NCBI GenBank assembly: GCA_963765495.1
Contig: CAVXWP010000016.1
Span: 32,001-96,000, forward strand
Source: Blastocatellia bacterium
GTDB lineage: Bacteria; Acidobacteriota; Blastocatellia; UBA7656
Length of the DNA: 64,000 nucleotides
Reading direction: 5' to 3'
Of the stretch, positions 8,063-61,667 are shown piece after piece. Below the pieces are notes generated by a model. That model was not told the DNA's origin and did not search any database. It was given only the letters and a program-made list of their open reading frames with translations. Both the position numbers and the translations under genes were made by a program. Position 1 is the stretch's first letter. The number at the start of each line of letters is the position of its first letter.

Positions 8063-8142
8063 TCGTGATGCGTGACTTTCAGGAAGGCTGCTGTTAAAGA
8101 TAAATTGCAAATCCGGTAAATCACGCATCACGCATCACGATT
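8063..8142. repeat. Inverted TGCGTGA/TCACGCA heptamer arrays, likely a bidirectional terminator-like hairpin
   Basis: tcgtgatgcgtga ... tcacgcatcacgcatcacga between convergent genes. Confidence 0.7.
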
Positions 8143-9502: not shown

Positions 9503-9520
9503 TTGATCTTTTGATTGCCG

Positions 9521-9955
9521 CTATTGGGCGCTGCCCTGTCTGACGGCTATCCACGAAGCGACCACCCCGGCAGGCGAGACTCCGCCGCTGCCGCTCGAAT
9601 GCGGAATCGCGCGAACTATCGAGCCGACCATCGCCGGTATCTGGTTCACCCCGTTGGGCCACGGAAGCACTACATAGCCTACGTAGTCGTATATCCACTC
9701 TTCGCCGCCGACCAGCCCCTTACCCTGAAAACGTACGGTGAACGGGTCGCCGTAATTGATCGAGCCGTTGAGGTCGAGTTGCCATCCCGTACCGTAAATC
9801 AAGCCCTTGAACCGATTCATCGGCGCGGCATCAACCCTTATGTTGCCCAGTCCGAATTCGAGATCGTTGAAAGATGTCGAAGGGTCCGGGTCGTTCAGGA
9901 AACTGCGATAGGTCCACGTCCCGACCAGTATTCCATTATTTGGTTCGCTGCTCAT
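9521..9955 (-). CDS. Hypothetical beta-rich protein in the lodA/lodB cluster
   Basis: 144 aa with AAGGAG RBS, co-oriented between lodA-like and lodB-like genes; GTWTYRS motif near the N-terminus. Confidence 0.8.
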   Translation of the reverse strand: MSSEPNNGILVGTWTYRSFLNDPDPSTSFNDLEFGLGNIRVDAAPMNRFKGLIYGTGWQLDLNGSINYGDPFTVRFQGKGLVGGEEWIYDYVGYVVLPWPNGVNQIPAMVGSIVRAIPHSSGSGGVSPAGVVASWIAVRQGSAQ

Positions 9956-9990
9956 CTTCTCTCCTTCGCGTTAAAGCGAACTGTTTTTAA

Positions 9991-10080
9991 TGCGTGATCC
10001 ATGATGCGTGATGCGTGAGACTTGAAGTTTTCTGTTAAAAGGAATCCCTCCTTCAGGTCACGGATCACGCATCACGAATC
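9991..10080. repeat. Inverted TGCGTGA/TCACGCA heptamer arrays
   Basis: tgcgtgatccatgatgcgtgatgcgtga ... tcacggatcacgcatcacga. Confidence 0.7.
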
Positions 10081-10111
10081 ATTGCCGATCTATCGCCATT
10101 GCCGACAATAT

Positions 10112-12232
10112 TCAAATATTCTCATCATTGCGCTCCACCTGAATAAAAGGCGGATAGCCGTTTTCGGCCGTGGCCTCGGGGTTGTCGCGTATAAAGCCGA
10201 GTTCTTTCCAGGCCGTGACCATCTTTTGATCCCCGGCGTGAGTCTGCGGGATTCCCTGCGACCACGAAACCTGACTGTATGACAGAGGCGCGCCGGGGGG
10301 TGTGGGAATCTGCTGATTGACCTCCATAGGCCGGTGCGCGGGCCACCAGAAGGTGGTTTGAAACACCTGCTGCACGGGATCGCCCGTCGTGTCGGGGTAA
10401 AGCTCGTTCCAGTCTTCGTAGGTGATATTTACGCTCTGGGTCGAGCACTCGTTGAAGTCGGATTGCCACGGCACGCCGCTGTATTTAGTGATGTCTCCCG
10501 GCTCAAGTCCCGTCGCCAGATCGCCGGTCAGGCTCAACGGGTTGGGCGTGGACGATTTCAACGTAGTCAATGAAAAATTGGGACTCTGTTTTATGCGATA
10601 GGCTTCGGAGTAAAGCGCCGGGTTTCGCATTATCCAGCAGGCTTCGCCTCCCGGACAAAAGGCCCCGCCAAGCAGGTTGCTCAAGACTCCCCGATCAAGG
10701 TCCGCGCCCGTCTTTGAGGACTCTTCGGGGTCGGTTGTCGGGATGTCTTCTTTCTTCTCGTTTATGAATTTACCTTCGGCCCACTGTTTCAGGATGAAGA
10801 GTTGCGTGTCGGTGAGTCGCAAAAATTTTGAAGGAACCGTATTTGAAAGCGGGTTGTCGCCGCATAGAAAGGGCATGCCTACGGGTTTGTAATTCGGGTT
10901 TTTCGGATCAGACGTAAAGTCCCAGAGGTTCTCCTGTCCGGGCTTGCGCAGAACGGCGTAAAGCTTTGCGCGCCACAGCAAACGCCTGCCTCTCTCTTCC
11001 GGGTTTTCTCCTTCAAAGGGCGGTATGGAAAGAAGCTCGGGGTCGAAATTGCCATGGAGCCCCGGCGTGGTGTCGTGCGGGTCGCCGCCCGTGAAGTAAT
11101 CGAAATCCATGACCCATTTATAGTTGTCGGGCCGGGTCAGGATCGGCCACACGTCGCGCCAGAAATACGGATAATAATCAGGATTCCACTCGGCCTGCGC
11201 CCGCCATAACGCGAGCGCGTCTGCATTCTCAGGGTCGGGCGGCGGCTGGCTCCCGTCAAAAGGAGGCACGCCGTACATGTAGGTGTTGTAGCCGAATTCT
11301 CTGACCGATAGATCATAAACAAGATCGTCCATCGTCACTATATCGACTATCTGAGGCGCGTAGCGCGGATAGCCTACGATGACCCAGGCCGGAACGTCCA
11401 CGTTTAAGTAGAGAGTCGGGGGCGTGGCCGGGTCGGGCGGGCGTCCATCTTCGCTGATGACTTTGTATTTGACGCGGGCCATCACGGGGCCGTCCGATAT
11501 GTCGTCGAACCACCCGTCGTTGTTGGCATATTGCTTGATGACCGGTTCTCCGAATCCCGTCTTGTAAGAACCGGAATTCCCATAGCCCCCGAGCACAAGC
11601 AGACGGTTATGGTGGTCCTGCTCGGTGACGAGCAATTCGCCCAGCGTGTCGATTGATAGCGGCGTAAGAGGCGGCGGGAATGATTGCGTGTAGCCGGGAT
11701 TTGACCCGCGCGCAAATTGAGCCGTGCGCTGTTTCTTGTTTGTATAGCTTACGGTTTGCGGGCCGGGGTCAATTATCAACTGTTGTCTTTCGTCGTTGCC
11801 TTCGACATCCGCATTGCGCAGAGGGTGATCGGGCGCGTAGCCGTGTTCGCCGTCGAGTTGCTTGAACTCGTACCAGCTTGATTTCTTGTTGGCCAGATAG
11901 ACGGTCCACTCAATGTCAACGACTTCGCCGACCATCTCCTGCCCCGTCTTCGGGCTTACGGTCGTGATCTTTTCGCCTATCTCGATCTCCTTCCCGCTGC
12001 CGTCGTCGTCATAGGCGTAAACGCGAAAGCGAGCGGCCTGTCTCATCACGCGCTGCTGGGAATCTTTGAAGCTCGACACGGGTTGTTCTTTCCCGTCGGG
12101 AGAGAGTACGGGGTTGCCCGCCTGATCGCAGGCGATCGGGAGATGGCCCGCTCGCTCCGGTGCTATATAAAAATCGGTAGTGCTGTTTCCAACGCGGGCG
12201 ATTCCAATCGCGGGATGAATCTTAAATCTCAT
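10112..12232 (-). CDS. lodA: LodA/GoxA-family CTQ-dependent amino acid oxidase
   Basis: FKIHPAIGIARVGNS, RQAARFRVY, WTVYLANKK, NNDGWFDDISDGPV, GGAFCPGGE, EPGDITKYSGVPWQSDFNEC, FWWPAHRP. Confidence 0.92.
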   Translation of the reverse strand: MRFKIHPAIGIARVGNSTTDFYIAPERAGHLPIACDQAGNPVLSPDGKEQPVSSFKDSQQRVMRQAARFRVYAYDDDGSGKEIEIGEKITTVSPKTGQEMVGEVVDIEWTVYLANKKSSWYEFKQLDGEHGYAPDHPLRNADVEGNDERQQLIIDPGPQTVSYTNKKQRTAQFARGSNPGYTQSFPPPLTPLSIDTLGELLVTEQDHHNRLLVLGGYGNSGSYKTGFGEPVIKQYANNDGWFDDISDGPVMARVKYKVISEDGRPPDPATPPTLYLNVDVPAWVIVGYPRYAPQIVDIVTMDDLVYDLSVREFGYNTYMYGVPPFDGSQPPPDPENADALALWRAQAEWNPDYYPYFWRDVWPILTRPDNYKWVMDFDYFTGGDPHDTTPGLHGNFDPELLSIPPFEGENPEERGRRLLWRAKLYAVLRKPGQENLWDFTSDPKNPNYKPVGMPFLCGDNPLSNTVPSKFLRLTDTQLFILKQWAEGKFINEKKEDIPTTDPEESSKTGADLDRGVLSNLLGGAFCPGGEACWIMRNPALYSEAYRIKQSPNFSLTTLKSSTPNPLSLTGDLATGLEPGDITKYSGVPWQSDFNECSTQSVNITYEDWNELYPDTTGDPVQQVFQTTFWWPAHRPMEVNQQIPTPPGAPLSYSQVSWSQGIPQTHAGDQKMVTAWKELGFIRDNPEATAENGYPPFIQVERNDENI

Positions 12233-12283
12233 TGCGTATCTCCTAAGTCAAACAATCCGTCAGTCCTTAAAAGGTGCGGGATA

Positions 12284-12342
12284 GCCACAGAGACACAAAG
12301 GCACAAAGAATAAAAATCTCTGTGTCTCTGCGCCTCTGTGGC
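12284..12342. repeat. REP-like palindrome, GCCACAGAG(A/G)CACAGAG family
   Basis: gccacagagacacaaaggcacaaag ... ctctgtgtctctgcgcctctgtggc; sister copies at 31474-31876 and 63826-63890. Confidence 0.75.
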
Positions 12343-12372
12343 CAAAATCTTCCTCAATCTGAAACTCATACG

Positions 12373-14478
12373 TCAGTCTTTGAAATTCAGCGAGACGCCG
12401 TCCAGCCACAGCGCATTCGGTTTCGGAGTGCCGTCTATGTCCATTACTACCAGATTGATCTGAAAATCGGTCTCGCCTTTTTTACTCAACCTCTCGATAG
12501 CCTCGGTCGCGTCAACACGGAAGTTGCCGGGGGTTTTGTGATGGCGCGATCTTAAATCAAACTTTCTGCGAGTCGGGGGCGGAACATCGCAGTGACCGGG
12601 ACCGCCTATGCACGCCTCGCCCGAAAAGGTCGCTATCTGCGCCACGAAATGATCGTTGCCGCGTGTGGGCGTATCTACGTTGGCATCGGGCTGATTGAGA
12701 AAGACGCGGATGAAAGCGCCGCCGCCCACCGAATACTGGACCTTGTGCAACCTTATGTCGGCGCATTTGTGGTTTGCCAGAACCGCCGGGTGAACTCCCG
12801 CCTTTGCCGATTTGAAGCGCGTGATCGGTATGGAACTGTCTGTCTCGAACAGATGAGAATTTTTCATGTATTCGTAACCGAGCGTTGCCGTGCTGTAGCT
12901 CTGCTTGACATCGAGCGTCCACGGCGCGAGGATATCGGTCGGGTCATCGGGGCTGCCGCCCGGATGCAGCGACTGCCATTCGGCCCACAGCCGATCTACG
13001 TTGCTGTGATGCCCCCAGAAGATCGGGTCTTTTGCCGTAGTCCCCGCAGACACCATATCTCCGTATTGCGGCTCGTTTGGATTCCCGCTCGCGTATTGAG
13101 GATTCGCGCCGCCCGAAAAGTTGTGGATAAGGTTATGGATGTTTTCGACCGCGCCAAAGAAATGATTTGTGGCCGGGCCGCTGCCAAAGGTGTAGAAGTT
13201 TTTTAACTGCAAAACGCGCTGAACGTCCTGCTCGGTAGGATAAGCCTCAAAGATCAGTGATTCGTTCCCGCCCGGCCATCGCCGTCTGTGCCAGAGCGGG
13301 TTGGCCGCCTGTAGCGCGGTCATGATCTCTTCGGTGGCCGGATCGTTATAATCTATCTTGGCCGCAGCCAGTAACCTGTTGCCCGAATTGTATGTCGTAT
13401 CCTTGATGTTTTTGAGCTTCATCCACGTGTCGGGCGAAATCTTCTCTTTCAACGCATCGAGCACATCCTGATTCACAAAACAACGATACGCCTTTGGAAT
13501 CACGCCGTTGTCGAGCGGCTTTGCCGACTTTTGATCCTGGATCGATTTCAGCACGTCCTGCCTGTACATAGGCCAGTCCCAGTAGGGGAGCGTCACCGTG
13601 GGGTCGATGTCTTGCAACTGCTGCTCGAAATAATAGAGGTAGACTCTGTGCCACGTGAGAAACTGTTCCCAGCCGTGCTGGCAGTTATTTGCGTGGATGT
13701 CGGCCCAGTATTCAAAGCTCCTGTCGTCATAGCGAAAGAACTTGTCATAGCAGTGCATGACCCTGACCGCGCGCCGGAACCGCGTAAGCTCATCTTCGGT
13801 CAGGCACTCGATGTTTTTGCGGAATTTTACTTTCCCGGATTCAGCGCGATACTCGTTGACCGAGCGCGTCGAAAGCGGGTGCTCTTCGTGCCCCTGCGCT
13901 CGCGCAATCTTTACTGGTTGCGTCACTTCAATCGTAGCCTTATGCTCATCGGTTGCGGGGCAGCCGTCATCAATCCAGTTCTGAATAAATAGAATATCCG
14001 AACTTGAAACCGCCTTTCCTCCCCACGGCAGCCGGGGGAATTGCGTGCCGTCGAAAGGAAATTGCCCTTTAAGCCCCTTTATCAACCCGGAGGCCGCGCC
14101 GCGTCCCGGCGAAGGCAAGACTTCGGGCGTGCCGCTCGCCTGCGGGCCGCAACAGGAATCCATTTGAACAGGGAGGCTTGAGGGTGGCGACGAAGGTTGT
14201 GGGGCGCTTTCAGATGCGGATTCGCAGCACGAGCCATGAGACGAAGCGGCAGGCAGCATATTCTGTTCGCAGAAATCCTGCGAGCCTTCCTCAGCTATCA
14301 TGCGAACGCCGTAAATGGTGACTTCCAGAAATTCTTCGAGCGGCAATTCCCAGAATCTCTCATACCCCTGATAACTGGGGCAGGCATCCCCGGCCGCCTC
14401 GTTTAGAATCTCTTTGACTCGCTCATAGCGCGTTTGCTTCTGTGGTCCTTCTTGCGTGTCTTGATTCTTATTGCCCAT
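12373..14478 (-). CDS. Tyrosinase (type-3 copper protein) with Cys-rich N-terminal and C-terminal accessory domains
   Basis: CuA HANNCQHG..FLTWHR, PYWDW, CuB HNLIHN...DPIFWGHHSNVDRLW. GAGGAGG RBS precedes ATG 14478 (701 aa). Confidence 0.92.
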   Translation of the reverse strand: MGNKNQDTQEGPQKQTRYERVKEILNEAAGDACPSYQGYERFWELPLEEFLEVTIYGVRMIAEEGSQDFCEQNMLPAASSHGSCCESASESAPQPSSPPSSLPVQMDSCCGPQASGTPEVLPSPGRGAASGLIKGLKGQFPFDGTQFPRLPWGGKAVSSSDILFIQNWIDDGCPATDEHKATIEVTQPVKIARAQGHEEHPLSTRSVNEYRAESGKVKFRKNIECLTEDELTRFRRAVRVMHCYDKFFRYDDRSFEYWADIHANNCQHGWEQFLTWHRVYLYYFEQQLQDIDPTVTLPYWDWPMYRQDVLKSIQDQKSAKPLDNGVIPKAYRCFVNQDVLDALKEKISPDTWMKLKNIKDTTYNSGNRLLAAAKIDYNDPATEEIMTALQAANPLWHRRRWPGGNESLIFEAYPTEQDVQRVLQLKNFYTFGSGPATNHFFGAVENIHNLIHNFSGGANPQYASGNPNEPQYGDMVSAGTTAKDPIFWGHHSNVDRLWAEWQSLHPGGSPDDPTDILAPWTLDVKQSYSTATLGYEYMKNSHLFETDSSIPITRFKSAKAGVHPAVLANHKCADIRLHKVQYSVGGGAFIRVFLNQPDANVDTPTRGNDHFVAQIATFSGEACIGGPGHCDVPPPTRRKFDLRSRHHKTPGNFRVDATEAIERLSKKGETDFQINLVVMDIDGTPKPNALWLDGVSLNFKD

Positions 14479-14532
14479 AAGCCTACATCCTCCTCTCTGA
14501 AGACGCTCCAAGAGTGGATTTGTGAAAGGTCT

Positions 14533-14750
14533 TGCGTGATTCGTAATGCGTGATGCGTGATCAGAAAAATCTTTGCGTACTTTGCGACTTGGCGTCTTTG
14601 CGAGAAATAGATCAACGCTAAGGCGCAAAGCCGCTAAGTACGCAAAGGGCTTTCATAAGGCAATCAGTAGTTCCCTAAAATCTCGCGAGTCTATTTAAGA
14701 ACTGAATGCCACTGCCTGCCTTCGGGTCACGAATCACGCATCACGAATCA
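14533..14750. repeat. Nested palindromic repeat: TGCGTGA/TCACGCA arms enclosing a CTTTGCGTA-family palindrome (14571-14647)
   Basis: Read directly; lies in the divergent tyrosinase/VWA intergenic region. Confidence 0.7.
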
Positions 14751-43787: not shown

Positions 43788-43938
43788 AGTAGGCAGTAGG
43801 CAGTAAGCAGTAGGCAGTAGGCAGTTGATACTGAACCGACGACTACTGCTAAAGAGAGCACGGGGTGTGCATATGAATAGATGGTACCCAACTCCGTTAC
43901 TGCCTACTGCTACTGCCTACTGCTTACTGCTTACTGCC
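43788..43938. repeat. Inverted AGGCAGT/ACTGCCT heptamer arrays
   Basis: agtaggcagtaggcagtaagcagtaggcagtaggcag ... tactgcctactgctactgcctactgcttactgcttactgc; half copy near 63135-63155. Confidence 0.75.
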
Positions 43939-46101
43939 CAGGTGTCTGTCAAAGAAATCCGTCGCCGCGCGGTAGGCTTCAACCCAGGTTTGATGGCGCA
44001 GGAAATCGTGGATTTCGTCGGGAAAGATCAATTGTTCGAATTCGACATCGCGTTTGCGAAGCTCTCTTATAAGGTCCACAGTCTGAGAGAACGCAACATT
44101 GCGATCATCGTCTCCGTGGATGAACAGCACAGGCGATTTCCATCTCTCTGCTGCGGAAATCGGGGAAGAATCGCGTGCCAGTTTTATTAGCTCTCTCGTA
44201 GCCCACGGGGCGCGGCTTACGCGAGCCGACCAGTCGTGGACACCGTGTATGTCTACTCCTGCCGCGAAAAGATCGGAATCTCTCGCAAGCCCCATAGCGG
44301 TCAAAAACCCTCCATAAGAGCCGCCCCATAAACCTATCCGCGCAGCGTCAATATCACTGCGGTTGCGCAGGTACTTACCCGCCGCCACTACATCCTGATA
44401 CTCGGAGGCCCCGCGCGGGCCGCGATGTTTTGCTTCGCGAAACCTGCGGCCGTAGCCTATGCCGCAACGGTAATTGACCGACAGCACCATATAACCCCGG
44501 CTCGCCAGATATTGATTCAGCGCGTAGGCGTTGTGGTAGTAAAACAGATAATGCCAGCCAAGCAACATCTGGCGCTGCGGGCCTCCGTGCATAAAAACTA
44601 TCGCGGGCAATTTGCCCGATGCGCCTCCGGGTTTGAACAACTGGCCGTGAACCTCTACCCCATCAGCCGCTTTGAATATCACCTGCTCAGGCTCTACAAG
44701 CTGGCTCGAAGGAAACCCGACCCCTTTAGCCTGTACCGCTTTAGCCTCTACCGCAAGCGGTCTCATATTCGATCCGTCAATTGATGCTATGAAGGGCTGT
44801 AGAGGGTCACGGGCCGTCGAGCGCAGGAAAGCCATCTGTCTGCCGCCGTCTATAAGAACGGGATACATCTCTATGCCGTTGCCGCGCGTGAGGGCTTCGG
44901 GCGATGTGCCGGTCAGGCTGATGCGCCAGAGGTGGCGGCGGTCTATGTCTCGGGCGTTGGCGCTGACGATCAGGAAAGAGCGGTCAGGAGACCACGCGAC
45001 GTTTTCAACTTCGTAATCGCCCGGCGTGAGAGAGATCGCTTCGCCGCCTTCGGCAGAAATGGAATACAGATGCGCCCACCCGTCGCTTTCCGAGCCGAAT
45101 ACGAGCCGATCATTTGACGCCCATTCGAGGACGTTGCGATCAAACACGCCCGAATAAGAATCTGTCTCTTCGCTGCCGGATCTCCATATCTCTTTTTCGC
45201 TCCCGCTACGCGCGTCTACGACCCGGATGGACCACGGTCGCAGCCGTTCCGCGTCTGCGGTGATCGTTTCATCTACGTTGAACAACTTGATGAAGGCAAT
45301 TCGCTTCCCGTCGGGAGACCATCGCGGTTCTATGTCCCGGTCCACACTCGGCCGAAGAAATTTGAGCCGGGAATATTGAGGTTCATAGACGGCGATAAAG
45401 CTGTGATCCCCGCGCACGGAGACGAATGCAAGACTGCTTTTGTCGGGTGACCATACGGGTGATTCGACCTGTCCGCGAATCTCAAACATTTTCTTTGCGC
45501 GGCCTCCGAGCAGGGGCGTTTCCCAGAGGTGGCCTTCACGGCTAAAGATGACACGGTCGCTTGAAGGCGAAAACATCGGGGCCAGCCCTTCGCCTATCTT
45601 GACGGGGCGGGCAGTCCTCGTGCTGACCGCCCAGACTTCCTGTCTCTGACCAAGCGGGTCGCTCGTGGGATTGGGGTATTCTCCGTCGCCGTTTGGCTCA
45701 CCGCCCCGCACGTAAGCTATCCAGTTCCCGTCGGGCGAAAATACGGGCGCGGTGATCTCCTGCCCGTCGTCTTTGTTGTAGCGGGTCAGTTGCCGCCCCC
45801 TGAACCCGGGGGCTTCGGCTATCCAGATGTTGCGACGGCCTTCCGCATAAATTATCCACGCGATCTTATCACCTCGCGGCGAAGCGATAAGATCGGTTGG
45901 GAAAGAGGCGCTCATAACCTGCTCAAGCGTGAAATCATTTGCGCGGGTATCTGCGCGAGTATTTGCACGAGTATTTGCACGAGTATTTGCACGAGTATTT
46001 GCACGAGTATTTGCACGAGTATTTGCGCTCGTGTAAAAAGGCGCTATCAGAAGAAGTGATAAGCAAAGGAGGGCAGAGATAAAGGGGCGATACATGGTCA
46101 T
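43924..46101 (-). CDS. Secreted S9 (dipeptidyl peptidase IV-like) peptidase
   Basis: GGAG RBS before ATG 46101, signal peptide, PD40 repeats, MHGGP, GGSYGG, HGDDDRNV, PDEIH. Confidence 0.9.
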   Translation of the reverse strand: MTMYRPFISALLCLSLLLIAPFYTSANTRANTRANTRANTRANTRANTRADTRANDFTLEQVMSASFPTDLIASPRGDKIAWIIYAEGRRNIWIAEAPGFRGRQLTRYNKDDGQEITAPVFSPDGNWIAYVRGGEPNGDGEYPNPTSDPLGQRQEVWAVSTRTARPVKIGEGLAPMFSPSSDRVIFSREGHLWETPLLGGRAKKMFEIRGQVESPVWSPDKSSLAFVSVRGDHSFIAVYEPQYSRLKFLRPSVDRDIEPRWSPDGKRIAFIKLFNVDETITADAERLRPWSIRVVDARSGSEKEIWRSGSEETDSYSGVFDRNVLEWASNDRLVFGSESDGWAHLYSISAEGGEAISLTPGDYEVENVAWSPDRSFLIVSANARDIDRRHLWRISLTGTSPEALTRGNGIEMYPVLIDGGRQMAFLRSTARDPLQPFIASIDGSNMRPLAVEAKAVQAKGVGFPSSQLVEPEQVIFKAADGVEVHGQLFKPGGASGKLPAIVFMHGGPQRQMLLGWHYLFYYHNAYALNQYLASRGYMVLSVNYRCGIGYGRRFREAKHRGPRGASEYQDVVAAGKYLRNRSDIDAARIGLWGGSYGGFLTAMGLARDSDLFAAGVDIHGVHDWSARVSRAPWATRELIKLARDSSPISAAERWKSPVLFIHGDDDRNVAFSQTVDLIRELRKRDVEFEQLIFPDEIHDFLRHQTWVEAYRAATDFFDRHLGSKQ
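45937..46026. repeat. In-frame 12-bp tandem repeat x7 (ANTR) just after the signal peptide
   Basis: atttgcacgagt units read directly. Confidence 0.9.
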
Positions 46102-48808: not shown

Positions 48809-49396
48809 TTATCGGCTGGCAACAAGGTTTGAATAGACTACCCACTTGCCGTCAACGAAGCCGCCCACAAGCGTGTAAGTATCTACGCCTGAATCGGTCT
48901 TCACCCGCCAGTTGCGAAAGAGCTTGTCGGGAGGTTTGCTGTCGAGTTCCAGCTTGCTTTCGGGCAGACCGTAAACCATCTTCGCAAAGTTTGCGGCATC
49001 GGTTCCGCTGACCTCGCTTCGCAAAACGCTCGGCAGCAGCGTACTCAGTCTCGACTGAGCTTCGGTGCGGGCCGCGGCCTGTTTCTGTTCCTGAGCGGTT
49101 TTGGCGGCCAGTTGTTGCCTGCATTGATCGAGGTCCGACTTGAGAGAGCCGTTTTCTTCGGCCAGTTGTTTCTTGTCGGTCTCGCTTGAGGCATACAACG
49201 CGTAGCTGGTTGACAGCAAAATGATGGCTCCGGCCATAGCCGCGCCGGTCACCATGAGCAGAAGCACCAGAAACCGCCGCTTTGCAGCCTGGTCCTGCAT
49301 GATCTGCTCTCTGATCATATCTACATCGCCCTGCGTGTAGCTGACGCTCCATCCGCCGGCGCTGTGTGAGGATTTGTCCGTCGGTGCCATAGTCAT
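48809..49396 (-). CDS. Hypothetical single-TM coiled-coil protein
   Basis: GAGG RBS, one hydrophobic segment, then a heptad-like Q/E/K-rich stretch. Confidence 0.75.
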   Translation of the reverse strand: MTMAPTDKSSHSAGGWSVSYTQGDVDMIREQIMQDQAAKRRFLVLLLMVTGAAMAGAIILLSTSYALYASSETDKKQLAEENGSLKSDLDQCRQQLAAKTAQEQKQAAARTEAQSRLSTLLPSVLRSEVSGTDAANFAKMVYGLPESKLELDSKPPDKLFRNWRVKTDSGVDTYTLVGGFVDGKWVVYSNLVASR

Positions 49397-51480: not shown

Positions 51481-51546
51481 AATTTTGAGTTTTGAATTTT
51501 CGCCTGCTGATCCCAACTCAAAACTCAAAACTTAAAACTCAAAACT
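51481..51546. repeat. Inverted GAGTTTT/AAAACTC heptamer arrays
   Basis: Between nuoM and nuoN; same family at 55828-55908. Confidence 0.75.
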
Positions 51547-51549
51547 ATC

Positions 51550-53373
51550 TCATCTGGTCTGGTCAGTCTGCTCGACGGATGGAGCGGGCTCGGATGTGCC
51601 CGGTTCCGTTTTGGTTTCAGCAAGCCTTGGTCTCTGGGCGGTCGGGGCGGTCTTAAAATAATCCGGCTGGACGAGCGCCACCACAGCTTCGGTCTGCGGG
51701 TTTATGTAAGAGAGCAAGGGCTTTGGATAAACGCCTATCCAGAAGATCAAAAGGATAAGCGGCGCAAACTGCCAGGCCTCGCGAGTATTCAAATCAGGCA
51801 ACGTCTGGTTAGCCGGATTCGTCACCTCTCCAAAGAAGACCCGCTGATAAAGCCATAGCATATAGGCCGCGCCCAGTATGATCCCGATGGTTCCAAGCGC
51901 GCCCCAAAGCGGGCGGGCTTCGAATGCGCCCCTGAGCGTCAGGAATTCGCCTATGAAATTATTCATCAACGGCAACCCGAGCGACGACAGTGTCACTATC
52001 AAAAATATGGTCGAAAATGTCGGCATCACATGAGCCAGCCCGCCGAACTGGGCTATCTCGTAAGTGTGCCGCCGCTCGTAAAGAATCCCCGCGAGCATAA
52101 AGAGCGCGCCCGTCGAGATGCCGTGATTGATCATCTGCATAACCGCGCCGTTGATCCCGTTCGGGTTGAGCGCGAAGAGTCCGAGCATGACAAATCCGAG
52201 GTGCGAGACCGATGAGTATGCGATCAGCTTCTTGACATCCTTTTGCGCCATCGCCACAAGCGCCCCATAGATGATGCCTATGATGGCGAGCGCGATCATT
52301 ACGCCTCGCACTCGCGGGTCGTTTGCGGCATCGGGAAACATCGGCAGCGAAAATCGCACAAACCCGTATGTGCCCATCTTCAGCAGTACGCCTGCCAGTA
52401 TGACCGACCCGGCAGTCGGCGCGTCATAGTGCGCATCCGGCAGCCACGTGTGGAACGGAAACATCGGAACCTTTATCGCAAACGAAAGCGAAAAACCTGC
52501 AAAAAGCCATATCACGAGACCAAGCCCAAATACCGATTTGATATGCGGCCCCATTGCCGTCAGCGCCACGATATTGAACGAACTGCGAACATACCCGGAA
52601 GGGAGCGGCGTCTTACCGTCGGCCCGATTCATAGCGTCTTCAGCCAGAGCGAGCATTTTACTGTTTACCTGCCCGACTCGCTCGGGGTCGGTCAGGCTGC
52701 TCGAAGCGTACTGCCGTGCGGTCGCTTCGACTTCGACCCGTTTGGTTTGAACTATTTCGGGGAAGATAAAGTAGAGCTTCAAAACGGCAAGCAACATGAC
52801 GACCGATCCTACAAGGGTATAGAGGAAGAACTTGATTGCCGAATAGAGCCGGTTCTTGCCGCCCCATATGCCTATCAGAAAATACATTGGGACGAGCATC
52901 ACTTCCCAGAAGACGAAGAATAAAAACAGATCGGCGGCTACGAACGCGCCTATCATGCCGCTTTGAAGCAGCAGCAGCATGATGTAGTACTCTTTTTCAC
53001 GCCCCTTCTCTCGAATATAAGACCACGAGCAGATGACGGCCAGCACTCCGAGCAGCGTCGTCAGAATCACAAGCACGAGCGAGAGACCGTCTACGCCAAG
53101 TTGATAACGCGCGCCGATGAGCGGTATCCATTCGTGATCCTCTATGAATTGCAGACCGCCGAGCGCCCGGTCGTAACCGTGATTGTTCCCACCCAGCCCC
53201 GTAAGCAGCGGCACCGAAATCAAAAAACATAAGACGATCCAGAGATTTGCGAACCATCGGATTCGGTCATTTCTCACGCTGTTGAAAAACAGCAGGATGA
53301 TCGCTCCAACAGCAGGCAACCACGTCACCCACGAGAGGATGCCTATCTTGAAAAACTCTATCTCACCAGGCAT
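51550..53373 (-). CDS. nuoM: NADH-quinone oxidoreductase subunit M
   Basis: LGVDGLS, FWEVMLVPMYFLIGIWG, IKVPMFPFHTWLPDAH, LLKMGTYG, YSSVSHLG. Confidence 0.95.
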   Translation of the reverse strand: MPGEIEFFKIGILSWVTWLPAVGAIILLFFNSVRNDRIRWFANLWIVLCFLISVPLLTGLGGNNHGYDRALGGLQFIEDHEWIPLIGARYQLGVDGLSLVLVILTTLLGVLAVICSWSYIREKGREKEYYIMLLLLQSGMIGAFVAADLFLFFVFWEVMLVPMYFLIGIWGGKNRLYSAIKFFLYTLVGSVVMLLAVLKLYFIFPEIVQTKRVEVEATARQYASSSLTDPERVGQVNSKMLALAEDAMNRADGKTPLPSGYVRSSFNIVALTAMGPHIKSVFGLGLVIWLFAGFSLSFAIKVPMFPFHTWLPDAHYDAPTAGSVILAGVLLKMGTYGFVRFSLPMFPDAANDPRVRGVMIALAIIGIIYGALVAMAQKDVKKLIAYSSVSHLGFVMLGLFALNPNGINGAVMQMINHGISTGALFMLAGILYERRHTYEIAQFGGLAHVMPTFSTIFLIVTLSSLGLPLMNNFIGEFLTLRGAFEARPLWGALGTIGIILGAAYMLWLYQRVFFGEVTNPANQTLPDLNTREAWQFAPLILLIFWIGVYPKPLLSYINPQTEAVVALVQPDYFKTAPTAQRPRLAETKTEPGTSEPAPSVEQTDQTR

Positions 53374-53424: not shown

Positions 53425-55824
53425 CTAATTACCGCCGAAACCTTTTATCGTAAACTGCACAGACGAAAAGACGTAGAACAGAAGAATGATGAACAGCCCG
53501 AAGGCAAACAGCAGCGCGTAATTTTGCCAGAACCCCGTCTGAAGCGAGCGCAGGATGAACGAACCTGCCTTCGTTATCCATCCCGTAGCATTTACCGCGC
53601 CATCAATGATCCACTTATCAAAGAATCCGCTCACGCGCGCCCAGAATTTCGTCAGCCAGCCCGAGCCGTTTACCCCACCGTCAACCACCTTTGCGTCAAC
53701 CTGCCACAGCGCGTTGTTTACGGCCTTGCCCGCCTCAACGCCTTTAACATCAAGCAGATAATCCCAGTACCATTTGTTAAAGCTCAAACGGTAGAGCGGG
53801 CGCAAGCGCGCAGCCCAGGCGTCGGGCAACTCCGGGCGTTTGACATAAAAGAGCCGGCCAAGATAAATGCCTCCCGCAGCGATGGCAAGCGATAGCACAA
53901 TCAGCACGTACTCCATCGGATCAACGGGCTCGTGCGCGCCTTCGTTGTGCGCGACGCTCGTCTCTTGAGGAGGAGCCGCCACACCGTGCAGCACTTCGGC
54001 GGCAGCCGCGCGCTCCGCTCCTTCGTGAACATTCACTATCACGGGATCGAGCCAGCGCTCGAACAGATTGATATTGGCCTTGCCGCCCGTGAAGGCGTGC
54101 GATATTCCTATCAGACCTCCTACCACGGAAAAGACCGCAAGCACTATGAGCGGCACGGTCATGCTCGAAGGCGATTCGCGCGGCTCGAAATGAGCGTGCG
54201 AGATGCCGTGAGCATCGAGGCTGTCTGTAGCGTCGTGCGCGCCTACGTGCTCTCCCGGCTCGTGATGAGGCCGATCACCCGCAGAGACGCGCAAGGCATC
54301 GTGCGGGGCCTCGCCCTTGTCGTGCGCCGAGGCGTGAGCCTCGTCGGCTTCGCCCCCGGCGTGGATCTTGCGAAAACGCTCTTCGCCCCAGAAGGTCATC
54401 GCTATGAGCCGCGTCATGTAAAACGCCGTGAGCCCGGCGGTGATAAAACCAACCAGCCACAGGATTTTCCCGCCGCCGAAGACACTCGTCGAAAAGGTCT
54501 TCCACAAAATCTCGTCCTTGGACCAGAAGCCCGCAAACGGGATGATGCCGCAGATCGCAAGCCAGCCCGCGAGCATGGTCTTGTAGGTCGTAGGCATATA
54601 CTTTGCCAGTCCACCCATTCGCGGCATCTCCTGTTCGTGGTGCATGCCGTGAATGACCGAGCCTGAACCAAGAAACAGCAGCGCCTTAAAGAAAGCGTGT
54701 GTGAGGACGTGAAAGATCGCGGCTACAAACGCGCCCACGCCCGCGCCCAGAAACATGTAGCCGAGTTGCGAGACGGTCGAGTAGGCCAGCACCTTCTTGA
54801 TGTCGGTCTGCGTGATTCCTATGGTTGCGGCGATGAAAGCGGTCAGGCATCCGATGAGCGCGACTATCATCATCATCGTCACCGACCGTTGAAAGATGAA
54901 ATTGGTTCGCGTCACCATAAACACGCCCGCCGTGACCATCGTTGCCGCGTGTATCAGCGCGGAAACCGGGGTGGGTCCGGCCATCGCGTCCGGCAGCCAG
55001 ATGTATAGCGGTATCTGCGCGCTCTTGCCCGTAGCGCCTATAAAAAGCCCGAGCGCCAGCCACGACATCAACCCGAACTGCCACAGGTTTTCGACTCCGT
55101 AGGCGGAAGAAGCCCGGGCAACCTCAGAAAACTGCAATGTGCCGAAGGTGGCGAATACGCCCATAATCGCCAGCGCGAAACCGAAATCGCCGATGCGGTT
55201 GACGATAAAAGCCTTCTTCGAAGCGTCTCCGGCCTCCCGCCGGTCGAAGTAATATCCGATCAGCAAATAAGAGCACAGACCAACGCCCTCCCACCCTATA
55301 AACATGATAAGGAAATTCGACCCCATCACGAGCAGCAACATCATGAACATGAAAAGGTTCAGGTAAGAGAAGAAGCGGTAATAGCCCTTGTCGCCGTGCA
55401 TGTAGCCCGTAGCGAATACGTGTATCCAGAAGCCGACAAACGTGACGATAAACATCATCACAAGCGAAAGCTGGTCTATCTGATAGCTCCACTCGATGTT
55501 GAAACTGGCAAGCGTGCCCGCGTGCTCGCCCTGAGTTTCATGCGCCAGCCCGCCCGGAAGCCACGTAAACGAATGAGGGAATCCTGCGTGCTCGCCCGTC
55601 GCCGGGTCGGTGCTTGTGACATAGGGCTTGTCTTCGTGCGCGGGCGCATAATCTGTGGCGTACTGGTAAAACGCTCCCAGCGTGAGCAGCATCGAGAGCA
55701 GTATCACGCCGCAGGCGATAATTGACACAGCGCGCTCGCTGAGCTTCAGCTTGCGTCCGAGCAGAAAGTTGATCAGAAAACCGAGGAGCGGAAAGATTGG
55801 GATGAGCCAGACGAGTTTTAACAT
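53425..55824 (-). CDS. nuoL: NADH-quinone oxidoreductase subunit L
   Basis: GWEGVGLCSYLLIG, GKSAQIPLYIWLPDAMAGPTPVSALIHAATMV, HAFFKALLFL, LQTG. Confidence 0.95.
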   Translation of the reverse strand: MLKLVWLIPIFPLLGFLINFLLGRKLKLSERAVSIIACGVILLSMLLTLGAFYQYATDYAPAHEDKPYVTSTDPATGEHAGFPHSFTWLPGGLAHETQGEHAGTLASFNIEWSYQIDQLSLVMMFIVTFVGFWIHVFATGYMHGDKGYYRFFSYLNLFMFMMLLLVMGSNFLIMFIGWEGVGLCSYLLIGYYFDRREAGDASKKAFIVNRIGDFGFALAIMGVFATFGTLQFSEVARASSAYGVENLWQFGLMSWLALGLFIGATGKSAQIPLYIWLPDAMAGPTPVSALIHAATMVTAGVFMVTRTNFIFQRSVTMMMIVALIGCLTAFIAATIGITQTDIKKVLAYSTVSQLGYMFLGAGVGAFVAAIFHVLTHAFFKALLFLGSGSVIHGMHHEQEMPRMGGLAKYMPTTYKTMLAGWLAICGIIPFAGFWSKDEILWKTFSTSVFGGGKILWLVGFITAGLTAFYMTRLIAMTFWGEERFRKIHAGGEADEAHASAHDKGEAPHDALRVSAGDRPHHEPGEHVGAHDATDSLDAHGISHAHFEPRESPSSMTVPLIVLAVFSVVGGLIGISHAFTGGKANINLFERWLDPVIVNVHEGAERAAAAEVLHGVAAPPQETSVAHNEGAHEPVDPMEYVLIVLSLAIAAGGIYLGRLFYVKRPELPDAWAARLRPLYRLSFNKWYWDYLLDVKGVEAGKAVNNALWQVDAKVVDGGVNGSGWLTKFWARVSGFFDKWIIDGAVNATGWITKAGSFILRSLQTGFWQNYALLFAFGLFIILLFYVFSSVQFTIKGFGGN

Positions 55825-55827
55825 AGT

Positions 55828-55908
55828 AGTTTTGAGTTTTGAGTTTTGAGTTTTGAATTCCGAGCAGAGTCTGTATAACTCAAAACTCAGAACTCAGAAC
55901 TCAAAACT
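55828..55908. repeat. Inverted GAGTTTT/AAAACTC heptamer arrays
   Basis: Between nuoK and nuoL. Confidence 0.75.
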
Positions 55909-55914
55909 GCAAGA

Positions 55915-56343
55915 TTACCATTTAAGCAAATCAATTTCGTCAATCGCTACGGTTTCGCGGTTGCGGAACAGCGATATGACGATGCCCAATCCGACGGCGG
56001 CTTCGGCTGCCGCCACAACTATGATGAATATCGTAAAGACGGGGCCGGTCAGCGTATTCACAGCCAGTCCTTTGGTCGCCAGCGTCGTTTGATTTATCTG
56101 CAAATAGCGCGAAAACGCTATCAGATTCAGATTGACCGCGTTCAGTATCAACTCGATAGACATGAAGATGATTATGATATTGCGGCGCGACAATACGCCT
56201 GCCACTCCCACCACAAACAGCAGGAAACTGAGCATCAGGAAGTTGACAAGCGTAGGCTCGAATCTCTGAAGGATAGACGATCCCTGAGCCTGCATCAGGA
56301 GCGGGGCGGCATAGGCGAGCGTGCCTATGGCAAAACTGATCAC
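55915..56343 (-). CDS. nuoK: NADH-quinone oxidoreductase subunit K (N-terminally extended)
   Basis: [34 protein letters not shown] at 56343 follows GGAGG; alternative ATG at 56295. Confidence 0.92.
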
Positions 56344-56358
56344 AGCATCCCTCCATTC

Positions 56359-56488
56359 TGAGGGATGAGGGATGAGGGATGAGGGATGAAAAGGACTGTA
56401 GGGGAACACTCCGGTAAATGGTCAAACCAATTAATCGAATTTGCCCTTAAACTCTTTTTCATCCCTCATCCCTCATCCCTCATCCCTC
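56359..56488. repeat. Inverted AGGGATG/CATCCCT heptamer arrays
   Basis: (gagggat)x4 ... (catccct)x4 between nuoJ and nuoK. Confidence 0.8.
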
Positions 56489-56498
56489 CTGAAATCCC

Positions 56499-57086
56499 TT
56501 ATTCATAAAGCTTTTCCTGTTTGGTCCCGCGCGCAAGCAAAACCGCTCCCACTATTGCCACAAGCAACAGCAAAGAGGCGATCTCGAAGGGCAGCGCGGC
56601 CTGTTTGTAAAGCGATTCACCGACGTTTTGCGTGTCTTTCGATATCGTGCCCGCACCTGCTTCTGATCTCACGCCCGACTGATCTAAGCCCTGTCTCGCC
56701 TCGGCGGTGGTCGGACGAAAAGCAGGTTGCGCCGGATTCATCGCGAAGTAAAACGAGAAGGCGAGCAAAAAAGCTACTATTACGGCCCACCACATCTGCC
56801 CGGTGTAAAGACGCACGCGGGCCTCTTCTTCGGCGCGCGTCTGCACAAGCATGATGACGAACAGAAACAAGACCATTACGCCGCCGACATAGACAAGTAT
56901 CTGGACACCGGCTACGAATTCAGCGCGCAGCAGTATGAACAACAGCGCTACGTTGACCAGAGTAGCGATCAAAAAAAGCGCCGAGTGAACCGCGAGTCGC
57001 GCCGTCACCACAAAGACGCTCATTATCAGCGTCATAAAGGCCAGCACGTAAAAAAGCACCGCTTCCCAACCGTGTAATTGCATCAC
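56499..57086 (-). CDS. nuoJ: NADH-quinone oxidoreductase subunit J
   Basis: HSALFL, AEFVAGVQILVYVGGVMVLFLFVIML, PFEIASLLLLVAIVGA. Confidence 0.95.
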   Translation of the reverse strand: MMQLHGWEAVLFYVLAFMTLIMSVFVVTARLAVHSALFLIATLVNVALLFILLRAEFVAGVQILVYVGGVMVLFLFVIMLVQTRAEEEARVRLYTGQMWWAVIVAFLLAFSFYFAMNPAQPAFRPTTAEARQGLDQSGVRSEAGAGTISKDTQNVGESLYKQAALPFEIASLLLLVAIVGAVLLARGTKQEKLYE

Positions 57087-57151: not shown

Positions 57152-57697
57152 TCATTTTGTGTATCGGACGTAATTGATGCCTTTCTCAAGCATCTCTCTG
57201 TCCCACCGGAACCCTGATCTGTGATATACCGCCAACTCAAAACTCTGCGTCAACTCCAGGCAATCCGTCGGACACGCCTCCGAACATAAATTGCAAAACA
57301 TGCACCTCGACGTATCAAAGGTAAAAGTCGTCAGCACCTTCTTTTTGTTTACCTTCTCTTTGTCCCTAACCTCGCGACGGATAGAGCCTACCTCTATGCA
57401 GTCTACCGGGCAGGCCAGCGCGCACAGGTCGCAGGCTATGCAGAGCGTGCCGCCGGTTTCGGGGTCGAGGTTTAAGCGGGGAGCGCCGCGAAAGCGTTCA
57501 GAGACGCGGGCAGGTTCGAGCGGGTACTGCTCGGTATAGATGGCCTGATTTGGATTGCCGCCGTCGCGAGCTTCGTAGAGGGCGCGGGCGTTGTATTTGA
57601 AAGTGACCGCAAGTCCCTTGAACAGGTCCAGTAACAGAAGCCGACGGATTATCTCGCCAAGCGAGCGTTTCTTTACAGGAGTTGTCGCTAATGCCAT
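57152..57697 (-). CDS. nuoI: NADH-quinone oxidoreductase subunit I
   Basis: TEQYP...RFRG, CIACDLCALACP and CMFCNLCSEACP (two 4Fe-4S motifs). Confidence 0.95.
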   Translation of the reverse strand: MALATTPVKKRSLGEIIRRLLLLDLFKGLAVTFKYNARALYEARDGGNPNQAIYTEQYPLEPARVSERFRGAPRLNLDPETGGTLCIACDLCALACPVDCIEVGSIRREVRDKEKVNKKKVLTTFTFDTSRCMFCNLCSEACPTDCLELTQSFELAVYHRSGFRWDREMLEKGINYVRYTK

Positions 57698-57772: not shown

Positions 57773-59092
57773 CTATTCTGCCGCTTCGGCCATCTTGTCG
57801 AGCCGCTCGCGGCGCAGTCTTAGCTGAAGCTGGCGCTGCTCGTGCAGGTTGAAATCCCGCGACCGCCGATTGATCGTCACAAGCACTAACCAGATCAGCG
57901 GAATAGTTATAAGAAAGCCCGTTATGATGAAATACCAGATGCCCGCCCCCGTAGGCACGAGCCGCCCCTTCACATCTTTCATGAAGCCGAGCAACCCGCC
58001 GCTCGATTGCGGCAGCGCCAGCACATACAGGATGCCCGTGAGCACGATATTAGCGAGCCCCGCAGGTATCAGCCATTTCCATCCGATCTCCATCAACTGG
58101 TCATAGCGGTAGCGCGGCCACGTCCATCTGATCCACATATAAGCGTAGATCAAAGCCATGACCTTCGCCATGAAGACCGCCACGCTGACAAAGACAAACG
58201 CGGTTCGATTCTGAATCAGATTAAGACCGGGAAACGACCAGCCGCCTAAAAACAGCGTCACGGCGACTGCCGATGTCACTATCATCGCCGAATACTCGGC
58301 CATAAAAAATAACGCCCATCGGAAACCCGAATACTCCGTGTGATACCCGGCTACGAGTTCGGATTCAGCTTCGGGCAGATCGAAGGGAGCGCGGTTGGTT
58401 TCGCCCAGCGCGCTTATGACGTAAACCAGAAAGCCTACGGGCTGAAAGGCCACATACCACATGCCGTCCGCCTGTTGCGCTTCGACTATGCCCGACATCG
58501 AAAGCGTGCGCGCAAACATCAGAGCGCCGATTATCGAAAGACCCATGCCGACTTCGTAGCTCACCATCTGAGCCGATGACCTGAGCGCGCCAAGCAGCGA
58601 ATACTTCGAATTCGAAGACCATCCCGCAAGCACGAGCCCAAGGACGCTTACCGACGACACGGCCAGAATAAACAGCAACCCGATATTGACGTTTGCTATC
58701 GTAGCCCAGGACGCGCCCCACGGGATGACCGATAAAACGACAAGCGCCGCTACAACCGAGATTATAGGCGCGATCAAAAAGACCGCGCGGTCGGCCTTGA
58801 TCGGGACGATATCTTCCTTCAGCAGCAGCTTGAGCCCGTCGGCGGCCGGCTGGAGCAATCCCCATGGGCCTACGCGCATCGGACCGAGCCGCGCCTGCAT
58901 GAAGGCCGACACCTTGCGCTCGACATAAACCAGATAAGCCACAAGCGTCAGGATCACAAACAGCACTATGATTATCTGTATGAGCGGCCACACGACATAT
59001 TCTGCCCAGAAAACATTTGGCAGCCTTTCATTCGTGAGGCTTCTCACCCAGTCGGGAGCAAGCGCTAAAAACGTTGTTAGAATGCCTGGCAT
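57773..59092 (-). CDS. nuoH: NADH-quinone oxidoreductase subunit H (C-terminally extended)
   Basis: ERKVSAFMQARLGP, ADGLKLLLKED, ETNRAPFDLPEAESELVAGYHTEYS, PRYRYDQLM. Confidence 0.95.
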   Translation of the reverse strand: MPGILTTFLALAPDWVRSLTNERLPNVFWAEYVVWPLIQIIIVLFVILTLVAYLVYVERKVSAFMQARLGPMRVGPWGLLQPAADGLKLLLKEDIVPIKADRAVFLIAPIISVVAALVVLSVIPWGASWATIANVNIGLLFILAVSSVSVLGLVLAGWSSNSKYSLLGALRSSAQMVSYEVGMGLSIIGALMFARTLSMSGIVEAQQADGMWYVAFQPVGFLVYVISALGETNRAPFDLPEAESELVAGYHTEYSGFRWALFFMAEYSAMIVTSAVAVTLFLGGWSFPGLNLIQNRTAFVFVSVAVFMAKVMALIYAYMWIRWTWPRYRYDQLMEIGWKWLIPAGLANIVLTGILYVLALPQSSGGLLGFMKDVKGRLVPTGAGIWYFIITGFLITIPLIWLVLVTINRRSRDFNLHEQRQLQLRLRRERLDKMAEAAE

Positions 59093-59100
59093 ATTTGACC

Positions 59101-59222
59101 TGATGCGTGATGCGTAATTCGTGATGCGTAATTCGTGACGCGTGATTCGTGATTTTCAGGCGATTGACTTTTTATCGCCCGAACCGTCTTTTGCACGGCT
59201 CACGCATCACGCGTCACGCATC
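59101..59222. repeat. Inverted TGCGTGA/TCACGCA heptamer arrays
   Basis: Between nuoD and nuoH, where nuoEFG normally sit. Confidence 0.75.
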
Positions 59223-59227
59223 GTTAT

Positions 59228-60361
59228 TTACCTGTCAACTTCGCCCAGCACGATGTCTATCGTGCCGATGATGGCAACTACGTCGGCAACCAGATGGCCT
59301 ATCGCCATGCGCTTTAGAGATTGCAGATTTATGTATGACGGCGGGCGAATACGCATGCGATAAGGCTTGCCTGTGCCGTCGCTCACCAGATAGACGCCCA
59401 GTTCGCCCTTTGGCGCTTCTATAGGATAATAGACCTCGCCCACGGGCGGCTTTATCACCTTCGACACCTTGGCCATGACTGGGCCTTCCGGCAGCCCGTC
59501 AAGCGCCTGCTCGATAATCCTGACCGATTGCCGCATCTCTTCCATACGCACAAGGTAACGGTCATATGTATCGCCGTTTTCGCCTAGCGGTATATCGAAA
59601 TCGAACTCCGAATAAGCCGAATAAGGCTGCGCCTTGCGCACGTCGTAATTGACGCCCGAGCCGCGCAGAACGGGACCGGTCATGCTGAGGTTTATAGCCT
59701 CCTCGCCCGACAGCACCCCGATGCCTACGGTGCGGCTGAGCCAGATGCGATTCGTGTTGAGCAGGGTTTCGTATTCGTCTATGCGGCCCGGAAGTATCTT
59801 CAGGAAATCGCGCACCCTTGTCTCAAATTCAGGATAAGCATCCCACCAGAGGCCGCCTATGCGAAACGCGTGCGCCGTGAGCCGCGCCCCTATGAAGTCC
59901 TCGAATATCTTCAATATCTCTTCGCGCTCGCGGAAGCAGTAGAGCAAAACCGTCACCGCGCCTATGTCTATCGCGTGAGTGCCAAGCCATAGAAGGTGGG
60001 AAGCGATGCGCTGAAGCTCTGTGAGAATGACGCGCAGGTATTCGGCGCGGCGCGGCACTTCTACCTGCAAGAGTTTCTCCACGCCTCCAACATAACAGAG
60101 ATCACCCGACACGGCGGCTACATAATCAAGCCGGTCCCAGTAGGGCGTTATCATAGCGTATGTGTCGTGCTCGGCGATCTTTTCCACGCCCCTGTGCAGG
60201 TAGCCTATGTCGCAATCGAGGTCTGTGACCGTCTCGCCGTCAAGCTTCAGCAACACGCGCAGCACTCCGTGAGTGCTCGGGTGCTGCGGCCCCATGTTAA
60301 GCACCATCTCTTCGGTATCGAAGAGCGTTTCCTGATTTCTTACTGCATCTTGCTCTTGCAT
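59228..60361 (-). CDS. nuoD: NADH-quinone oxidoreductase subunit D
   Basis: [44 protein letters not shown]; no NiFe-binding CxxC. Confidence 0.96.
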
Positions 60362-60437: not shown

Positions 60438-61559
60438 TTACCGTCTTTCAGCATACTTCACATCTATCAGGCTCGTGTCGTAATCGACCTCTCGATAGTC
60501 GAGATGTTTATCGGTCCATTCGTTGTCGCGATACTCTATCGGGTAATCTTTGCGAAGCGGATAACCGGGCCAGTCGGGCGGCATAAGTATACGGCGCAGG
60601 TCCGGGTGGCCTTCAAATCGTATGCCGAACATATCAAAGACCTCGCGTTCCATCCAGTCTGCGCCCGCCCAGATCGAAACGACGCTCGGAGCGGCCTCGC
60701 CTTCGGCGATAGCCGTCTTGACGCGCAGCCTCCGGTTTTTCGGCACGGAATAAAGGTTCACGACTATATCGAACTCCTGTCCGGCGCGCTCCGGCCAGTG
60801 AATCGCCGTCAAATCCGAACACATGTCAAAAAGCGATTCGCTGTCGTCGTGCAGGAAGCGGCAAAGTTCGAGGTAAGACGAGTTTTTGACAACCACGATC
60901 TGCTGAGAGTGAGTGGCCACGGTTTCGGTTATCGCGTCTTTGAACTTCTGCTTTAATCGGTCGATGAGCGGATCGTCTGTGATCTCTACGGTGACGACCG
61001 GCCCCTTTTTCGGCGGCGGCCTTGGCGGCGCGTGACCGGCTGCCCCGGCGGCTTTTGGAGGCGCGGGCCTCCCGGCAGCGGGCGCGCGTGGCGGCGGCGC
61101 GGGCTTTGCAGCAGCGGCCTCTTTTGGTGCTGCCTCTTTTGATGGAGCCTCTGCCGTTGGAGCCTCTTTTTGAGGAGTCTCTTTTTGAGGAGTCTCTTTT
61201 TGAGGAGTCTCGGGCTTGCCCTCTTCGGAAGCGCCTTCGATTGTGGGCGTAAGCGAAGGTTTTTCCACACCGGGCAACGCCTGTTCGACCTTGGCTTCGG
61301 TTCTGGGTTTCTCTCCGAGTGGGAGCGTGGGCTTGATCTTTGCCTCAAGCTCTTCGGCCGGGTGCTCGCTTCCGGCAATGGCAGGAAGCGGAAGAGTCTG
61401 TTCGGGAACTGGTGCGCCTACCTCTTCTTTGGCATCCTTGCCCGCCGCTTCGGGAGGTTTTGGCAGAGACGCCATCTCTCTCGTCTTTTCGGCTTGTTCC
61501 TCTTCGCGCCCTTTGTCACTCGGCTGATTTTCCGATGTATCCTTGGATTCGTCTGACAT
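60438..61559 (-). CDS. nuoC: NADH-quinone oxidoreductase subunit C with long low-complexity N-terminal extension
   Basis: [31 protein letters not shown]; first ~190 aa are E/P/A/K-rich. Confidence 0.93.
61167..61211. repeat. In-frame 15-bp tandem repeat x3 (ETPQK) in nuoC
   Basis: tttttgaggagtctc x3 with degenerate neighbours. Confidence 0.85.
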
Positions 61560-61667
61560 TTTAATGTAACCCGAAACACGGCGCGCAGGCATCTAGCGTG
61601 CGCGCTGTAACTATTAGAGCTTCGTATGTGACTTCTCTAAGAAAAGATTTTGCTGCCAGCCGGAATG

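Follow-up and report, generated by a model that had tools for sequence, protein, structure and literature searches.

In the 2M type of complex I, the amphipathic helix of NuoL is longer by about 26 residues and the gene cluster carries a second nuoM (PMC9040806, PMC6606698, PMC7117926). In solved structures this lateral helix touches NuoM and NuoN and ends in a transmembrane anchor helix at NuoN (PMC3046159). A mismatch between helix length and nuoM count is already on record. The two canonical-type clusters of Ca. Manganitrophaceae, Complex_I_1 and Complex_I_2, have the L-M-N order and one nuoM together with a NuoL helix insertion, and whether the insertion accommodates an extra subunit or marks a transition was left open (Yu et al. 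2022, PMC9040806). Peatland Acidobacteria have several nuo clusters, one of them with nuoEFG, and scattered nuoA, nuoB and nuoI (bioRxiv 10.1101/197269; PMC6018796); among seven peatland Acidobacteria MAGs, two (SbA4 and SbA6) carry a stand-alone, expressed, full-length nuoM and one carries a tandem pair (PMC6018796). Our search found no literature on a Blastocatellia complex I with a long helix and a single nuoM, nor any on a NuoM that serves twice in one complex, and passages of PMC4453560, PMC12361115 and PMC8357420 say nothing on either; Chadwick et al. 2018 (doi 10.1038/s41396-018-0210-1), which may include Acidobacteria or cases with a single nuoM, and Fig. S2 of PMC9040806 may cover part of the subject.

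We analysed a stretch of 64,000 nucleotides from a Blastocatellia bacterium (the window), which carries a nuo cluster in the order nuoC-D-H-I-J-K-L-M-N, with nuoC as the first gene. Its features are as follows.

60438..61592, minus strand: nuoC, with a long low-complexity N-terminus
59228..60361, minus strand: nuoD
57773..59092, minus strand: nuoH
57152..57697, minus strand: nuoI
56499..57086, minus strand: nuoJ
55915..56409, minus strand: nuoK, ORF as listed; the true start is probably later
53425..55824, minus strand: nuoL, 799 aa, distal antiporter-like subunit (NCBIfam TIGR01974, 672 bits)
53533..53775, minus strand: extended lateral amphipathic helix HL of NuoL, residues 684-764 (AlphaFold2, hydropathy, hydrophobic moments)
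53620..53697, minus strand: repeat 1 of the helix, D710-F735, with motif residues D710, D715, V718 and N719
53542..53619, minus strand: repeat 2 of the helix, D736-L761, with motif residues D736, D741, V744 and N745
53437..53529, minus strand: TM16, the last transmembrane helix of NuoL (predicted helix 766-796; hydrophobic 771-789)
51550..53373, minus strand: nuoM, 607 aa, the sole copy in the window
52528..52764, minus strand: hydrophilic helical insertion of NuoM between TM6 and TM7, about residues 204-282, about 75 residues
49761..51521, minus strand: nuoN, key residues present; translation probably begins downstream of the TTG given as start

NuoH, J, K, L, M and N of the membrane arm are all encoded, with conserved central charged residues. 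NuoL has E179, R210, D213, K267, K380 and K436 (mapped on E. coli NuoL), NuoM has all nine mapped key residues (E157, K181, K301, H308, H315, K332, H391, H417 and E476), and across L, M and N the central charged residues mapped from E. coli are retained except for one variable position in L. The window's NuoM subgroup shows a two-residue change directly after H315. The predicted NuoL fold is ordinary and matches NuoL/NdhF/ND5. In subunit identity, fold, key charged residues and L-M-N order the locus resembles canonical complex I (E. coli, Thermus, Paracoccus, M. smegmatis), but it differs in a split cluster, in large insertions in NuoL and NuoM, and in a lateral helix that exceeds the measured short-helix NuoL by 23-29 residues and has its motif doubled. 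The NuoL insertion, between TM13 and TM14 (about residues 483-550; window 54175-54378), is His-rich and poorly ordered. The locus is not of the Green complex I or Complex_I_3 type, in which two MrpD-like subunits replace NuoL, as the window has a single full NuoL.

Only 51 bp separate nuoL from nuoM and 28 bp separate nuoM from nuoN, so that a second nuoM would not fit into these gaps. No further antiporter-like gene was found when the 64-kb window was searched in six frames. The first-pass annotation was therefore right that only one nuoM is present.

Other repeats and genes of the window were recorded as well. Tandem repeats of 7 bp, often in inverted pairs, lie between genes of the nuo cluster and in its vicinity (51515-51546, 55828-55908, 56359-56488, 59101-59153 and 43788-43938), and because of them some ORF starts are inflated; 15-bp repeats occur in the N-terminal extension of nuoC (61117-61211), and an S9-type peptidase gene has a 12-bp unit repeated 7.5 times in its N-terminal region (45937-46026). 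LodA-like and LodB-like genes stand beside a tyrosinase-domain gene (8135-14628), possibly a quinoprotein amino-acid oxidase cluster, and an IS982-family transposase lies at 2118-3011. A promoter and terminator scan gave nothing that clearly exceeded shuffled sequence.

The lateral helix of NuoL contains a repeat with a period of 26 residues. The leading Asp codons of its two copies, at 53697 (D710) and 53619 (D736), are 78 bp apart, and comparison of NuoL with itself gave a score of 60 at offset 26 (the next offset was 21), which was reached by 0 of 2000 shuffles (maximum 47). The first-pass annotation had described an exact 26-residue duplication; the repeat and its 78-bp offset are real, but in pairwise comparison the copies are identical at 9 of 26 residues and 40 of 78 bases, indicating that the duplication is old and degenerate rather than exact. 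For NuoL of Thermus and of M. smegmatis, one and the same stretch of helix can be aligned with each of the two repeats, at a weak 2-5 bits that make the match no more than illustrative.

We measured the helix as the spacing between D688 and G764, which is 76 residues in the window NuoL, 51-53 in five short-helix relatives, 52 in Sphingomonas and 47 in E. coli (the row for L043 was disregarded, as a wrong ORF had been taken). The net gain is thus 23 to 25 residues over the short-helix relatives and Sphingomonas, and 29 over E. coli. In L074, a Thermodesulfobacteriota locus with two nuoM genes in tandem, the NuoL helix is also 76 residues long and has the same register as that of the window. Alignment with E. 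coli and with 2M-type NuoL, which the first-pass annotation had proposed as a check, thereby confirmed the added length, and by its period, its gain and its agreement with L074 the helix carries the extension of about 26 residues known from 2M complex I. AlphaFold2, run with a 67-sequence alignment, predicted an unbroken helix at 685-739, a break at 740-743 and a helix at 744-762, with low confidence (block pLDDT 47-67). The hydrophobicity of the region is below transmembrane grade, and its hydrophobic moments are 0.29-0.47 from residue 697 onward.

Each repeat bears the motif D-x4-D-x2-V-N. Over 120 of 120 close homologues, conservation at the eight motif positions is 98-100%; of 149 cluster representatives, the 128 with a long helix show 89-100% at these positions, and six of the eight are invariant in the 67-sequence alignment. 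We take the conserved Asp of the motif to be a contact with NuoM; our literature search turned up no passage on it. Among the best 120 matches to the NuoL C-terminus, in which the named proteins are from Blastocatellia or Acidobacteriota, the helix spacing equals that of the window in 116, is one residue longer in two and one shorter in one, and one match was unanchored.

The lengths of the NuoL helix fall into groups about 25 residues apart. Among 150 representatives the length was 51-52 in four, 75-78 in 129, 87 in two and 102 in one, with 14 unanchored; none fell between 53 and 74, in a set enriched for long helices by the query. The representative of length 102 (P0197) is a fragment of NuoL whose three helix repeats would be long enough for two additional modules. 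The two of length 87 (P0239 and P0246) have two repeats and an 11-residue glycine-rich loop within the first motif, which shows that the helix is able to carry a loop.

Helix length was then set against nuoM count in relatives. A NuoM genome scan by exact 8-residue matches gave 569 confirmed stretches, and the best 80 of these yielded 78 loci, to which the counts of loci in this text refer. The Blastocatellia clade, set by NuoM identity and tree, comprises 65 of the 78. All 58 clade loci that show the nuoL end, nuoM and nuoN combine a long helix with one nuoM (best 80 of 569 stretches); six of the other seven have no nuoL in view and one ends before nuoN. The remaining 13 loci are foreign, with nuoM of 45-53% identity. 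Six of them have a long helix, four with one nuoM, one as a lone nuoL-nuoM pair and one, L074, with two nuoM; a further six have a short helix and one nuoM, and one is without nuoL. A tandem nuoM is therefore found in one of the 64 informative long-helix loci (best 80 of 569), a sample biased to close relatives. N-terminal fragments of a frameshifted nuoL in L033 and L061 were set aside, and two overlapping M ORFs in L058 were counted as one frameshifted gene. Both NuoM proteins of L074 carry the nine key residues identically, so an M1 type cannot be distinguished from an M2 type by these residues. In a quick NuoL tree (33 rows, 18 of the 78 loci), short and long helices interleave outside Blastocatellia, with deep branches unresolved, suggesting that the extra unit may arise easily and be tolerated.

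Several loci were unusual in other respects. A stand-alone nuoL-nuoM pair with a long helix (L042, 7932-11527) is followed directly by ATP synthase F0 genes, with no nuoN or nuoK nearby, and a Nitrospirota locus (L048, 2830-6750) has nuoJ-K-M-N without nuoL. Four loci titled 'uncultured Clostridia' (L003, L012, L018 and L024) fall in the Blastocatellia clade, with NuoM about 80% identical to that of the window, and are probably mislabelled. No Acidobacteriota appeared in the plasmid collection among the matches listed (40 of 510).

The locus thus shares with 2M complex I a NuoL helix longer by about one unit, with the length and register of a 2M locus, but its cluster is without a second nuoM, here and in all 58 informative relatives (best 80 of 569). 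What the first-pass annotation called a 2M signature is accordingly a 2M-type helix length that is not diagnostic of tandem nuoM. By gene content the locus is not a 2M complex, though it may work like one, and it matches the published mismatch. It differs from Ca. Manganitrophaceae, which belong to another phylum and whose genomes also hold a two-nuoM cluster (PMC9040806). The Blastocatellia are a new lineage with a real, class-wide form of a mismatch that had been published without an explanation; new are its breadth (58 of 58 loci, best 80 of 569), the finding that both motifs are invariant, the rise of helix length in steps and the existence of a three-repeat form.

On balance, comparison of these sequences inclines us to a Blastocatellia membrane arm of four antiporter-like modules, L-M-M-N. 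A length of 26 helix residues is 39 Å, about the width of one antiporter subunit. The NuoL helix would thus bear two units of about 25 residues, each about 39 Å long and approximately one subunit wide, and each repeat would dock one NuoM, so that the helix, like a ruler, would set the distance from NuoL to the TM16 anchor at NuoN. The simplest way to account for a long helix whose far anchor is fixed and whose two docking motifs are intact would be a pair of NuoM-type subunits placed between L and N. We infer from this docking, and from the stoichiometry that would follow, that such a complex would translocate five protons per two electrons instead of four; nuoA, nuoB and the electron-input module would come from other loci. 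The 2M-type length and register (76 residues, as in L074) and the strong conservation of both repeats fit the fourth antiporter slot suggested by the first-pass annotation, although the flanks offered no candidate protein to fill it.

Since the cluster has one nuoM, the second slot would take either another copy of the same NuoM or a NuoM whose gene lies elsewhere. We tentatively prefer the former. The L-M and M-N contacts would be homologous, and since the copies of a duplicated nuoM are identical at birth, an M-M contact would once have been workable. It is possible too, if somewhat doubtful, that the second subunit is a separate paralogue of NuoM, encoded by a stand-alone gene or in another nuo cluster. 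Such supply in trans would not be exceptional, as nuoA and nuoB must already come in trans, and there are precedents in the stand-alone genes of SbA4 and SbA6 and in a non-operonal nuoM of Nitrospira moscoviensis (PMC6606698). However, no stand-alone nuoM of the Blastocatellia clade was present among the 78 loci (best 80 of 569), although the 13 foreign nuoM loci were picked up; this speaks for the same NuoM used twice, but is a weak negative because the scan required exact 8-residue matches and kept the best 80, and a query with Thermoanaerobaculia NuoM returned no second Blastocatellia NuoM, all of its best 120 matches being close homologues.

The most serious rival to L-M-M-N is an ordinary 1:1:1 L-M-N arm that moves four protons, which we regard as quite plausible, if short of an even chance. 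The extra unit would then be left over from a 2M ancestor, or would have been gained and tolerated; it would bulge out or bind lipid or a partner complex. The gene counts speak for it and against L-M-M-N: exactly one L, M and N are found in the 58 informative Blastocatellia-clade loci, none of which has two nuoM, and two nuoM occur in one of the 64 informative long-helix loci (best 80 of 569). The predicted helix break at 740-743 points the same way, in a model of low confidence, and so does the interleaving of short and long helices outside Blastocatellia. In SbA1, a 96%-complete Acidobacteria MAG considered here for its gene count, whatever its helix length, two clusters have one nuoM each and there is no spare (PMC6018796), and an 'evolutionary transition' is among the readings that Yu et al. 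gave for the same mismatch (PMC9040806). Yet a relic should decay, whereas the motifs are kept class-wide and the spacing is identical in 116 of the best 120 matches; moreover, helix lengths come as whole units.

The first-pass annotation also took the lack of an N-module to suggest a high-stoichiometry complex or one that runs reverse electron transport. We found nuoE, nuoF and nuoG to be absent from the window (six-frame search) and from all 65 Blastocatellia-clade loci (best 80 of 569), and a complex I without the NADH module, passing electrons in reverse to ferredoxin, has been proposed for the 2M complex I of Nitrospira (PMC9040806, PMC6606698). However, nuoA and nuoB are absent from those very loci, a point that the first-pass annotation did not make. 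Complex I requires both genes, so the cluster must be split, and the absence of the N-module from it says little. The lack of nuoA, B, E, F and G sets the window cluster apart from Complex_I_1 and Complex_I_2 of the Manganitrophaceae. Split nuoACDHJKLMN clusters of other Acidobacteriota likewise have no nuoEFG and have scattered partners (bioRxiv 10.1101/197269; PMC6018796), although they keep nuoA and miss nuoI (bioRxiv 10.1101/197269); nuo genes are commonly scattered in this phylum. Those clusters are linked to atpZ-I-B-E (PMC6018796), as they are in many relatives of the window locus (L001, L047-L070), where the nuo cluster adjoins or nears atpZ, atpI, atpB and atpE; the link is absent in the window. 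Further against reverse transport, the 2M locus L074 bears a nuoG-like gene upstream, the annotated genes of the window indicate no autotrophic pathway, and described Blastocatellia are mostly heterotrophs. Reverse electron transport is thus improbable here, and the missing N-module lends it no support.

The NuoM insertion is predicted with confidence to fold as three helices, and its best 19-mer hydropathy is 0.74. By its likely topology it would be a lineage-specific periplasmic element rather than extra transmembrane helices; it is longest in the window's subgroup, shorter in Pyrinomonadaceae and nearly absent elsewhere. A 195-aa protein with one transmembrane helix and no Pfam or NCBIfam match is encoded 364 bp after nuoN (window 48809-49396). 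That this protein, another membrane protein or the enlarged NuoM itself fills the extra length, as the first-pass annotation had also proposed, is very improbable, because the insertion is hydrophilic and absent or tiny in the long-helix loci L037, L042, L043, L050 and L074, homologues of the 195-aa protein occur in six of the 78 loci (best 80 of 569), no extra antiporter gene was found in the 10-kb flanks of the 78 loci, and those conserved neighbours that have an annotation encode ATP synthase F0 subunits, enzymes or regulators (of 29, 7 were without a Pfam match).

If the arm is ordinary, the helix insertion cannot serve as proof of a 2M complex. With four pumps in the arm, complex I of a large bacterial class would yield more protons than its genes lead one to expect, and the marker to use would be the length of the helix, not the number of nuoM genes. 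A four-pump arm would also provide a natural test of one proton per antiporter module, a debated point in the mechanism of complex I; as cultured Blastocatellia exist, the question is testable. More speculatively, the NuoL helix may be a modular ruler that sets the number of NuoM subunits, so that one nuoM gene would give two copies across Blastocatellia and several other lineages and three with the three-repeat NuoL, and clusters with tandem nuoM would be a later fixation of the homo-duplicated state. If so, a five-proton complex I would be widespread among a major group of soil bacteria, and counting genes would not reveal it.
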